Below, in pieces: positions 12,293 through 16,133 of a DNA stretch of 64,000 bases. Position 1 is the first letter of the stretch, and every line of letters begins with the position of its first letter. Origin of the DNA: Gammaproteobacteria bacterium (GTDB lineage Bacteria > Pseudomonadota > Gammaproteobacteria > UBA6186 > Azoamicaceae); the NCBI GenBank assembly GCA_018061325.1, contig JAGOUJ010000001.1, positions 654 through 64,653 of the forward strand, in the 5' to 3' direction. The notes below the pieces were generated by a model that worked only from the letters and a program-made list of their open reading frames with translations, did not search any database and was not told the DNA's origin. A program made the translations under genes and the position numbers.

Positions 12293-12652
12293 ATGCGTCA
12301 TCGCAAAGTAGGCAGACGATTTAGTCGAACATCCAGTCATCGTAAGGCTATGTTTCAGAATATGATTAATTCTGTGCTACGTCATGGCATGATTAAAACA
12401 ACCTTACCTAAAGCGAAGGACTTACGGCGTTTGCTGGAGCCCTTGGTAACCTTAGCCAAAGAAGATAGCGTGGCCAAACGTCGTTTAGCTTTTGCTAGAT
12501 TGCGCGATAAGGAAATGGTGGCCAAGCTTTTTGCACAGTGGGGACCTCAGTTTAAGGAACGTCCAGGCGGGTATTTGAGAATTTTAAAATGCGGCCAGCG
12601 TTCAGGCGATGCAGCACCCATGGCTGTGGTGAGTTTTGTAGCGTGTGCTTAA
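12293..12652 (+). CDS. rplQ: 50S ribosomal protein L17
   Basis: 119 aa. [21 protein letters not shown]-terminus. Confidence 0.96.
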
Positions 12653-12685
12653 TGGTGCTATTACCTAAAAATATTTTTTAGAACA

Positions 12686-12712
12686 AGCCGGGCCTTTGCC
12701 CGGCTTTTTTTT
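12686..12712 (+). terminator. Rho-independent terminator after rplQ
   Basis: Stem AGCCGGGC, loop CTTT, stem GCCCGGCT, followed by a T-run. Confidence 0.8.
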
Positions 12713-12723
12713 GTGAGATTTTC

Positions 12724-14286
12724 ATGGAACATCGCACAACACTGTCTTTTGGTCGCATCAGAAGTTTTCTGTGGCCGATTCATTGTTACGAATATAAGAA
12801 GCTATTTCCTATATTAATCTTATTTTTCCTTATATCTTTTGTGTACAACATCTTACGTTGTATGAAAGTGACCTTGGTGGTGACTGCCGAAGGATCCAGT
12901 GCAGAGGTGATCCCTTTTCTAAAAGTATGGGCTGTATTACCCAGTGCTGTCCTGCTTACCTATGTTTATACCAAATTATCCAACCGTCTCAATAGAGAAC
13001 AGGTTTTTTATGCGATGCTGGCTATTTTCTTAGGATTTTTTACGCTGTTTATGGTCTTTTTACATCCGCATCGAGAGGCCTTAGAGTTAAAAGAATTGTC
13101 AGACTTTTTAAGTCAGCAACTACCAGAAAGACTCAATGGCTTAAAAGGATTGCTTATTATTATACGTCATTGGCATTTATCTTTATTTTATGTGCTATCA
13201 GAACTATGGAGTGCGGTGGTTTTATCCATGTTGTTTTGGGGCTTTGCCAATGAAATTACAACGATTGATGAAGCCAAACGATTTTATGCGATTTTTGCCC
13301 TGGGTGCTAATAGTTCGGGTATTTTATCGGGACAGTGTGCACAGTGGCTAACCTTGGATCATTACCACCCGGCATTGCCTTTTGGTACAGTCGCATGGGA
13401 ACAATCCTTAATCTTACAATTGGCTTTGGTGTTAGTGATGGGGTTTGCGATTATTGGCTTATTTTACTGGGTCAATCGTCGACTAATCGTTACGCAACCA
13501 GACAGTAAGCCCCTTGCAGCACAACCTGAAAGTGGCGAAAAACTATCTTTGTGGGCCTGCTTAAAGGCATTGGTTTCTTCGCCTTATATGTTATATATCG
13601 CTATTTTAGTGGTCGCCTATAATATTGTTTACAATCTATCGGATGTTTTGTGGACAGAGCAAATACGTGCACGTTATCCCGATGCCAGCGATTTTAATGC
13701 CTATATTAATAGCATTGCTTCAATCACGGGTGTGTTTGCGACGATCGCCGCATTGCTACTATCGGGCAATGTGATTCGCTTTTATGGATGGACGGCCACC
13801 GCATTAATCACACCTATTTTATGGCTTGTAACCAGTGTGGGATTCTTAGGGTGTTTGCTTGGTACACAGTATGGGCTGTTTTCAGATTATATGTTGGGTT
13901 TTCTAGGGGTTCCGCTGAGTACTTTAGCTTTGTTTTGTGGGTCTGCACAGATCTGTTTGGGTAGGGCTGCCAAATATACTGTCTTTGATGAATCGAAAGA
14001 GATAGCCTTTATTCCACTGAGTCAGGCGGAACAACGTAAAGGTAAGGCTGTGGTTGATGGGATTGCTTCGCGTCTGGGTAAATCGGGAGGATCCTTTATG
14101 ATCCAGGCACTGTTGGTGTCTTATGGAACCTTAGCCTTAACGATTCCGGCCATCAGTGTTATTTTTGTGCTGATGATCGCATTATGGATCTTGGCTGTGT
14201 TGCGTCTGGGACGTATGGCCAGCAGAAAGATTGATCGTACGATGGCACAGCCAACTTCGGAAAAGGTTATTTATGCAGCATCCTAA
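12724..14286 (+). CDS. tlc: ATP/ADP translocase-type nucleotide transporter (NTT/Tlc family), copy 1
   Basis: 520 aa, polytopic. Family-typical LRCMKVTLVV, EVIPFLKVW, FWGFANEITT..EAKRFY and KGKAVVDGIASRLGKSGG motifs. Confidence 0.88.
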   Translation: MEHRTTLSFGRIRSFLWPIHCYEYKKLFPILILFFLISFVYNILRCMKVTLVVTAEGSSAEVIPFLKVWAVLPSAVLLTYVYTKLSNRLNREQVFYAMLAIFLGFFTLFMVFLHPHREALELKELSDFLSQQLPERLNGLKGLLIIIRHWHLSLFYVLSELWSAVVLSMLFWGFANEITTIDEAKRFYAIFALGANSSGILSGQCAQWLTLDHYHPALPFGTVAWEQSLILQLALVLVMGFAIIGLFYWVNRRLIVTQPDSKPLAAQPESGEKLSLWACLKALVSSPYMLYIAILVVAYNIVYNLSDVLWTEQIRARYPDASDFNAYINSIASITGVFATIAALLLSGNVIRFYGWTATALITPILWLVTSVGFLGCLLGTQYGLFSDYMLGFLGVPLSTLALFCGSAQICLGRAAKYTVFDESKEIAFIPLSQAEQRKGKAVVDGIASRLGKSGGSFMIQALLVSYGTLALTIPAISVIFVLMIALWILAVLRLGRMASRKIDRTMAQPTSEKVIYAAS

Positions 14287-15787
14287 TTCAGTACCCTTTT
14301 CTAGATTGCGGAATTTCTTTTGGCCTATTCATGGCTATGAGCACAAAAAGCTTGTGCCTATGCTACTGTTATTTTTCTTAATCTCCTTTATTTACAACCT
14401 CTTACGGTGTATGAAAGTAACTTTGGTTGTGACTTCCCAGGGGTCAGGTGCCGAAGTGATTCCTTTCTTAAAAGTGTGGGCTGTATTACCCTGTGCAGTC
14501 TTTTTAACCTATCTCTATACAAAACTGTCCCAGCATCTTAATCGCGAGCAAGTTTTTTATACGATGATTGCGATATTTCTAGCGTTTTTTACAGTGTTTT
14601 TGTTGGTGTTGTATCCCAATCGAGAGCTCTTAGAGCTCAATACTTTTGCAAACTATCTAGAACAAGTCTTACCCAGCGGTTTTAAAGGACTCATTTCTAT
14701 TATTCGTCATTGGCCCTTAGCCTTATTTTATGTGTTATCCGATCTGTGGAGCGCGGCTGTTTTATCCATGCTGTTTTGGGGTTTTGCCAATGAGGTCACG
14801 ACGGTCAATGAAGCCAAACGATTTTATGCCATTTTTGCTTTGGGGGCCAATTTCTCGGGTATATTCTCAGGACAATTTGCACAGTTTCTCATTTTAGACG
14901 ATTACAATGCATGGTTTCCCTTTGGTCAAAATGCCTGGGAGCAGTCTTTAAATTTACAGCTGGGCCTTGTTTTATGTTTAGGCGTTATGATTATTTTCCT
15001 CTTTCGGTGGGTGAATAAAAAAGTTTTGCCGATGCAGCCCGCTATCAATCTTCATGAACCGCTGGTGGAAGAACCGTTTACGAAGTTTTCCTTAACAGAA
15101 TGTTTTAGGTATATCTCAAAATCACGGTATATGCTTTATATCGCAATTGTGGTGGTCTCCTACAATATTGTGTACAACTTGGCCGATGTCTTATGGACTG
15201 CGCAAGTGAAGCAGCGTTATCCCGATGCCTCGGATTTTAATGCCTATATGAACGATATTGTTTCTGTGGTGGGTGTTTTTGCAACGGTCTCAAGCTTGTT
15301 TTTATCGGGTAATGTCATTCGACGTTATGGTTGGACGGTGACAGCGATGATTACGCCTTGCATTCTGCTCGTAACAGGCATTGGATTTTTTGGTTGTATG
15401 CTGTTTGAAACCAGTCCCTATTTGAGCGATTGTCTCTTTGCCTTATTTCAGACACCGGTGATTAATTTAGTACTTCTTTTTGGTTCTGCGCAAATGTGTT
15501 TGGGTAGAGCTGCAAAATATACCGTGTTTGATGAAACCAAAGAGATCGCTTTTATCCCTTTACCCAAAGCAGAACAACGTAAGGGTAAGGCCGTGGTCGA
15601 TGGTATTGCTTCGCGTCTGGGTAAATCAGGCGGGTCGCTGACCATACAAATTTTATTGGTCTTGTGTGGCAATTTATTGGCTACAGTGCCTTATATTGCC
15701 GGTATTTTTGTGATCTTTATTGTACTGTGGATTATCGCGGTGCGAAGATTGGGTCATTTGGTGTGGAAATCCATCGATAAAGGCTGA
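14273..15787 (+). CDS. tlc: ATP/ADP translocase-type nucleotide transporter (NTT/Tlc family), copy 2
   Basis: 504 aa from the ATG at 14273, collinear with copy 1 (42/60 identical over the first 60 residues by hand count). Overlaps the copy 1 stop by 14 nt. Confidence 0.87.
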   Translation: MQHPNSVPFSRLRNFFWPIHGYEHKKLVPMLLLFFLISFIYNLLRCMKVTLVVTSQGSGAEVIPFLKVWAVLPCAVFLTYLYTKLSQHLNREQVFYTMIAIFLAFFTVFLLVLYPNRELLELNTFANYLEQVLPSGFKGLISIIRHWPLALFYVLSDLWSAAVLSMLFWGFANEVTTVNEAKRFYAIFALGANFSGIFSGQFAQFLILDDYNAWFPFGQNAWEQSLNLQLGLVLCLGVMIIFLFRWVNKKVLPMQPAINLHEPLVEEPFTKFSLTECFRYISKSRYMLYIAIVVVSYNIVYNLADVLWTAQVKQRYPDASDFNAYMNDIVSVVGVFATVSSLFLSGNVIRRYGWTVTAMITPCILLVTGIGFFGCMLFETSPYLSDCLFALFQTPVINLVLLFGSAQMCLGRAAKYTVFDETKEIAFIPLPKAEQRKGKAVVDGIASRLGKSGGSLTIQILLVLCGNLLATVPYIAGIFVIFIVLWIIAVRRLGHLVWKSIDKG

Positions 15788-15878: not shown

Positions 15879-16133
15879 ATGGTTGTAGTTCGTTTAGCAA
15901 GGGGCGGCGCTAAAAAGCGGCCGTTTTATCATATTGTTGCAACCGACAAGCGTAATCGTCGGGATGCAGGTAATACGCTAGAGCGTTTGGGCTATTTTAA
16001 TCCTATTGCCCGTGGTCAAGAGATGAGAGTGCATGTGAATCGAGCACGCATTCAGCACTGGCAGGCTATGGGTGCCCAATTATCTCAGCGGGTTTCAGCA
16101 TTGTTGTTAGAATGGGACAAGAAGGGATCCTAA
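15879..16133 (+). CDS. rpsP: 30S ribosomal protein S16
   Basis: 84 aa. [21 protein letters not shown]-terminus. Confidence 0.95.

Follow-up and report, generated by a model that had tools for sequence, protein, structure and literature searches.

Within the window, a 64,000-nt stretch of contig JAGOUJ010000001.1 (assembly GCA_018061325.1, positions 654 to 64,653 of the forward strand), two collinear genes of the nucleotide transporter (NTT) or TLC family lie in tandem; they are called NTT-a and NTT-b here. The source organism is a gammaproteobacterium of the lineage UBA6186 (Candidatus Azoamicales), whose GTDB family, Azoamicaceae, also contains Azoamicus and Azosocius. The pair stands between the alpha operon, with the gene order secY-rpsM-rpsK-rpsD-rpoA-rplQ upstream, and the operon rpsP-rimM-trmD-rplS downstream (Table 1). 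This gene order bears out the placement proposed in a first-pass annotation of the same DNA, and the two intact tandem open reading frames (ORFs), with the second start overlapping the first stop, were also found as described there. We consider it likely that the pair encodes functional NTT/TLC importers with which an obligately host-associated member of UBA6186 obtains RNA and DNA building blocks from its host.

The reading frame of NTT-b is open already from TTG 14231 (listed as 14231/14273..15787). From ATG 14273 onwards, its N-terminus matches that of NTT-a residue for residue (MQHPNSVPFSRLRNFFWPIH versus MEHRTTLSFGRIRSFLWPIH), and the gene was therefore taken to start at this codon. The two proteins are 64% identical across 508 residues. 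A hand count had given 42 identities among the first 60 aligned residues, which our recount corrects to 40/60.

Table 1. Features of the tandem NTT locus and its immediate surroundings (positions of the window)
Feature	Position	Strand	Description
rplQ (L17)	12293..12652	+	last alpha-operon gene; TIGR00059, 139.8 bits
Alpha-operon intrinsic terminator	12685..12714	+	9-bp GC-rich stem (GCCGGGCC...), then T8 run; from terminator scan and sequence
NTT-a	12724..14286	+	520 aa, TLC/NTT family transporter; the more derived copy, evolutionarily dispensable as judged from related genomes
NTT-b	14273..15787	+	504 aa, TLC/NTT family transporter
Overlap of NTT-b start and NTT-a stop	14273..14286	+	14 nt; ATG 14273, TAA 14284-14286; GGAAAAGG just before
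rpsP (S16)	15879..16133	+	opens the downstream operon

The assignment to the NTT/TLC family was upheld by profile searches, in which both proteins scored over nearly the full length of the family models. Pfam PF03219 (TLC; cut-off 21 bits) matched NTT-a with 512.8 bits (profile positions 6-488 of 491) and NTT-b with 560.9 bits (7-489 of 491), and TIGR00769 (cut-off 387.2 bits) yielded 475.9 and 502.4 bits, respectively. Alignments of both proteins to the solved carriers 9j3n and 9j3j (Arabidopsis NTT1) cover the chains from one end to the other, at E values of 1e-100 to 1e-126; residues 8-498 of NTT-a and 6-496 of NTT-b pair with residues 6/8-493 of 9j3n without large gaps, and several hydrophobic segments are spread over the full length of each protein. 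Compared with the orthologues in the two nearest genomes, G005 and G008, the ratio of non-synonymous to synonymous substitution rates (dN/dS) was 0.06-0.11 for both copies, so that both are kept by purifying selection. These ratios and the intact ORF rule out that NTT-a is a pseudogene in the source genome. The best 120 clusters of a homologue search with NTT-a were environmental relatives at 57-100% identity, with no characterised anchor among them.

Five NTTs have been published for Protochlamydia amoebophila, and anchors for the class of the pair were obtained by exact-sequence look-up in strain UWE25 of this species. CAF22974 clusters with CAE46506 (PamNTT1), CAF22965 is PamNTT2 and CAF22964 is PamNTT3, the genes of the latter two being adjacent. 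Supplementary Table 8 of Graf 2021 (PMC7969357) gives the activities as ATP/ADP for PamNTT1, antiport of nucleoside triphosphates (NTPs) for PamNTT2 and UTP/H+ symport for PamNTT3. A six-frame PF03219 scan of the UWE25 genome (G082) gave four matches and did not recover PamNTT4 (CAF23209) at E <= 0.001. The identification of P0148 as PamNTT5 is based on genome position and accession arithmetic only; this protein, on a branch of 2.86, is sister to the UBA6186 clade in one tree and stands elsewhere in the FastTree result, and its placement was not used.

The NTT family tree falls into two superclades with a support of 100 each (two IQ-TREE runs, and in addition FastTree for the PamNTT2/PamNTT3 side). 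PamNTT1 groups with two further paralogues of the source genome, C64 and C41 (support 100). The tandem pair belongs to the superclade of PamNTT2 and PamNTT3 (support 100) and lies outside both their clades; being a member neither of the PamNTT2 clade (98-99) nor of the PamNTT3 clade (89-96), it is not orthologous to either protein. It is found within a separate clade of 48 rows (98/94; bootstrap/Shimodaira-Hasegawa-like approximate likelihood ratio test, SH-aLRT). Because PamNTT1 groups with C64 and C41 and the pair sits in the other superclade, the pair is probably not of the ATP/ADP exchanger type known from energy parasitism, and the label 'ATP/ADP-translocase type' that it had been given in the first-pass annotation is probably wrong. 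Scores against the ATP/ADP carrier 9j3n were 618 bits for C64, 437 for C41, 426 for NTT-b and 396 for NTT-a. The C64 paralogue (L001:1492-3000) is 62% identical to PamNTT1 and likely represents the ATP/ADP exchanger of the source genome.

The metabolic context points to a need for import. The source genome comprises 1.28 Mb in 67 contigs, is 96.7% complete and carries four NTT genes (the pair, C64 and C41). Six-frame family searches, which were positive in 13-14 of 14 control genomes, did not find purH, purA, inosine monophosphate dehydrogenase (IMPDH, guaB) or orotidine monophosphate decarboxylase (pyrF) in it; CTP synthase (pyrG), ribonucleotide reductase, Ndk and F1Fo ATP synthase (atpD/atpA) are present. 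Judging from these missing enzymes, the organism must rely on an external supply of nucleotides of adenine, guanine and uracil, or of precursors to them, and it can regenerate ATP itself. Building-block import is the role suggested for the pair because de novo purine and pyrimidine synthesis and the interconversion of A and G are lacking, while CTP, deoxynucleoside diphosphates and ATP can be made. As pure ATP/ADP exchange brings no net gain of nucleotides, an importer role would fit the copies of the PamNTT2/PamNTT3 superclade. An intracellular lifestyle, which the first-pass annotation had read from the presence of NTT genes, agrees with the reduced gammaproteobacterial genome, the endosymbiont-containing lineage and the lack of de novo nucleotide synthesis; the part of that claim that probably does not stand is the energy-parasitism type for this pair. 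NTTs are present in all 24 other genomes searched from the same GTDB family, and a member with 292,520 bp, consistent with Ca. Azoamicus ciliaticola, has a single one.

The duplication history was traced with 94 near-full-length NTTs from 25 UBA6186 genomes together with chlamydial loci from metagenome-assembled genomes (MAGs), using a quick tree on the full set and a careful IQ-TREE analysis on a reduced set (support again as bootstrap/SH-aLRT). In the latter, the NTT-a orthologues form a clade of 9 rows (99/96) and the NTT-b orthologues one of 17 rows (96/97). The two clades are sisters (99/95), as they are in the quick tree, and the tandem duplication is therefore placed by these trees inside UBA6186, before several genera split. 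The same sister relationship rules out the wholesale transfer of a ready-made chlamydial NTT3-NTT2 tandem. A separate, independent tandem duplication occurred in G017 (support 100).

Surveying related genomes for single versus duplicated copies, as had been proposed, showed several in which copy a had subsequently disappeared or been disrupted. Copy b occurs in every genome carrying a/b-type genes; copy a is absent at the rplQ locus in G002, G004, G007, G009 and two more genomes, and G012 and G021 yielded no a-type copy. In G001 (L029:4355-5846), the NTT-a orthologue is broken into two ORFs of 272 and 252 aa beside an intact NTT-b and is apparently a pseudogene. Among 238 columns conserved in both clades, 8 are fixed differences between a and b (S14N, S59G, A97T, F112V, H151P, I178V, S197F, S424T), and at columns 59, 197 and 424 copy a deviates from the state of nearly all other NTTs. 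Together with the repeated loss of a, this sequence pattern marks a as derived and dispensable, and b as the indispensable copy that is closer to the ancestral state. It is possible that NTT-a and NTT-b differ in substrate specificity.

By tblastn synteny, the first NTT lies directly 3' of rplQ in 18/18 UBA6186 loci that reach far enough upstream. The rpsP operon follows the pair only in the source genome (G000), G005 and G008. In G008 (L017:7704-8612), a gene of the APH(6)/hydroxyurea-kinase family is located between a and b, and in G011 (L020:7527-11027) genes for an MFS transporter, an NAD-dependent epimerase and a UDP-glucose dehydrogenase are found there; the a-b junction seems to tolerate insertions.

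Functionally important residues of the plant translocase AtNTT1 are K155, E245, E385 and K527 (Trentmann 2000, as reported in Heinz 2014, PMC4256464); their numbering was transferred to the 9j3j chain by a single offset of 84. The equivalents of K155 and K527 are kept in both copies. The position of E385 is occupied by Asp in both, and that of E245 by Glu in NTT-a and by Asp in NTT-b of the source genome and its two closest relatives. The functional transporters ThNTT1 and ThNTT3 likewise deviate at these conserved charged positions (Heinz 2014, PMC4256464). Judged by residue type, the E385D and E245D changes are conservative, and they are compatible with family membership.

Two further positions set the pair apart. 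All 55 other aligned NTTs have D or E at the second Asp of the RDTKD motif in transmembrane segment 1 (TM1), and all 57 have K at the Lys of the EVTWK motif in TM7; in the pair, these motifs read RCMKV and DVLWT. The signature residues are V49, K67, E160, D307, T311 and K453 in NTT-a and V49, K67, D157 (the E245 position), D305, T309 and K451 in NTT-b. All tandem-type proteins from UBA6186 (37/37) have V/I/T/L at the TM1 Asp and T/I/A/N at the TM7 Lys. An exhaustive search of 1.84 billion representatives yielded 150 NTTs, down to 31% identity. In the tree, the proteins lacking Asp and Lys constitute one clade, the 48 rows already mentioned, free of intruders and mostly also carrying E385D. Some 22 representatives at 50% identity belong to this clade and come from uncultured bacteria, an Oligoflexales MAG among them, and none of the four Protochlamydia anchors falls inside it. 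The two positions covary (Fisher p = 7e-27), a value that is inflated by shared ancestry, reflecting one loss event plus a few scattered cases. Since the joint loss is essentially one evolutionary event, we go no further than the hypothesis that the TM1 Asp and the TM7 Lys may interact as a salt bridge in canonical NTTs. If that bridge indeed served as gate or for coupling, the subfamily would differ from every characterised NTT class. That its members have a transport mode or substrate range unlike those of the characterised classes, with a and b splitting this function, is an idea we offer tentatively and hold to be rather doubtful. In any case, the residue signature marks a sizeable NTT subfamily without a tested member.

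Concerning expression, the T-run of the alpha-operon terminator ends 9 nt before the ATG of NTT-a, with only GTGAGATTTTC left in between, and the entire spacer between rplQ and the NTT gene measures 71 bp. The hairpin and T8 run after rplQ are kept in 14/14 spacers examined. As there is no room for a promoter between the T-run and the ATG, transcription of the pair probably relies on polymerases reading through the rplQ terminator, and the 14-nt overlap suggests that translation of NTT-b is coupled to that of NTT-a. At the loci L022, L023, L025, L028 and L055, spacers are 200-300 bp long and contain a near-consensus sigma-70 promoter between terminator and NTT (TTGACA-N17-GATAAT in L022); the source lineage lost the promoter-bearing stretch, with 71 bp remaining.

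Taken in order, the proposed course of events would begin with a chlamydia-like NTT of the PamNTT2/PamNTT3 superclade that was set behind the alpha-operon terminator early in UBA6186 and then duplicated in tandem inside the order, giving rise to the a and b lineages. NTT-a and NTT-b would be inner-membrane transporters (Transporter Classification 2.A.12), most likely supplying nucleotides as building blocks through net import, either by H+ symport or by hetero-exchange, with ATP/ADP energy exchange most likely falling to the PamNTT1-like paralogue on another contig. Their expression would probably depend on terminator read-through and, for NTT-b, on coupling through the overlap.

A different role would be that both copies act as classical ATP/ADP counter-exchangers in energy parasitism, with the additional copies raising dosage. 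The Pfam and NCBIfam family names refer to ATP/ADP exchange, and both copies retain K155 as well as K527, a residue that has been linked to triphosphate transport. We judge this unlikely given that a support of 100 sets the pair apart from the clade in which PamNTT1 and the PamNTT1-like copy of the source genome are found, that E385 is replaced by Asp in both and E245 by Asp in b, and that the otherwise invariant TM1 Asp and TM7 Lys are gone; moreover, an organism that has its own ATP synthase and needs net import of G and U nucleotides cannot meet this need by exchange alone. Transport of a non-canonical substrate, e.g. NAD+ as for PamNTT4 or another cofactor, appears improbable. It would be in line with the unusual changes of the subclade at otherwise invariant charged positions, and PamNTT4 is without an anchor in the tree; on the other hand, PamNTT2 and PamNTT3, as the closest relatives with a characterised function, transport RNA nucleotides, and the demonstrated metabolic gaps concern nucleotide synthesis, NAD synthesis lying outside that survey. 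We give very little credence to outward transport that would provide the host with ATP, the role proposed for TlcA of Ca. Azoamicus. Azoamicus and Azosocius do belong to the same GTDB family and the source genome does encode an ATP synthase, but the Azoamicus tlcA is of the C41-type clade and not of the tandem type, and a genome of 1.28 Mb with signs of nucleotide dependence is unlike an organelle-like respiratory specialist of 0.3 Mb.

Several points weigh against the building-block reading that we prefer. The substrate range of NTTs is not predictable from sequence, and most characterised members accept ATP (both Heinz 2014, PMC4256464), so that ATP/ADP exchange by a or b is conceivable. The comparison with characterised NTTs, which the first-pass annotation had called for, was carried out for PamNTT1, PamNTT2 and PamNTT3 and the probable PamNTT5; Rickettsia Tlc2-5, Chlamydia Npt2, Simkania NTT2-3 and PamNTT4 are left out of the placement. 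The source genome is a MAG in 67 contigs, in which 'not found' is no proof of absence, and the search for metabolic gaps left out salvage routes (phosphoribosyltransferases, nucleoside kinases). As to read-through, the RNA-labelled runs holding the locus were flagged as probably DNA and contain short contigs of a related strain.

Among known systems, the PamNTT2/PamNTT3 pair of P. amoebophila shares with the window pair the family, the superclade (support 100) and the tandem layout, and both bacteria are intracellular and without nucleotide synthesis. The window pair is about 45-50% identical to its chlamydial relatives. Copies a and b differ in being non-orthologous to the chlamydial pair, each having its closest paralogue in the other (99/95). 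The TM1 Asp, E385 and the TM7 Lys are all retained in PamNTT2 and PamNTT3; the corresponding residues of a/b are V49, D307/D305 and T311/T309. With the ATP/ADP translocases AtNTT1 (9j3j), 9j3n ('ADP,ATP carrier protein 1') and PamNTT1, the pair has the fold family in common; it belongs to the other superclade, however, and their true counterpart is the C64 paralogue. The order of a PamNTT3-like followed by a PamNTT2-like gene is kept in several uncultured Chlamydiota (L031, L032, L033, L035, L038), and L038 has a run of six consecutive NTT ORFs or fragments, of which some are broken.

Parts of this picture have been published. Speth et al. 2024 (PMC11549363) describe tlcA across UBA6186, with one copy acquired from a Chlamydiota organism and inherited by Azosocius, and translocases in the group were also noted by Graf et al. 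2021 (PMC7969357) and in single-cell work of the Schulz lab. In our trees, the Azosocius tlcA copy of chlamydial origin (L044) shares a clade with the window pair. The consulted sections of Speth 2024 (PMC11549363) and Graf 2021 (PMC7969357) make no mention of the tandem duplication, the a/b lineages, the loss of a, the position next to rplQ or the residue signature. As far as these sections go, the occurrence of NTTs in UBA6186 with its meaning for lifestyle and the chlamydial origin of this copy are already known; the detail on history, position and subfamily signature is new here.

To specialists, the pair will not be surprising, as it is a largely ordinary and well-documented case in a known family and lineage. 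NTTs are a hallmark of nucleotide and energy parasitism and central to ideas on the integration of endosymbionts and organelles, and the origin of tlcA is debated in the order of the 'respiratory endosymbiont' Azoamicus. In the relatives with larger genomes, three to four types of NTT form a stable set that includes the PamNTT1-like exchanger, the type kept by Azoamicus and the chlamydia-derived importer duplicated behind the alpha operon. Such a set speaks for an ancestor already living as a nucleotide parasite.

The Azoamicus tlcA (L042, G019) is found in a clade of 12 rows (support 100) with the C41 paralogue (L003:1435-2991), and at least four other UBA6186 genera also contribute copies to this C41-type clade. 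With this distribution in the tree, inheritance by descent inside the order explains the Azoamicus transporter better than a recent transfer from Alphaproteobacteria would.

Metagenomes of wastewater and freshwater, produced in at least seven studies, contain the tandem locus. Over the whole window (1-64000), the GC skew is positive in 31/32 bins and the cumulative skew climbs steadily; judging by the skew, a single replichore probably covers the entire window, most of whose genes would be leading-strand genes.

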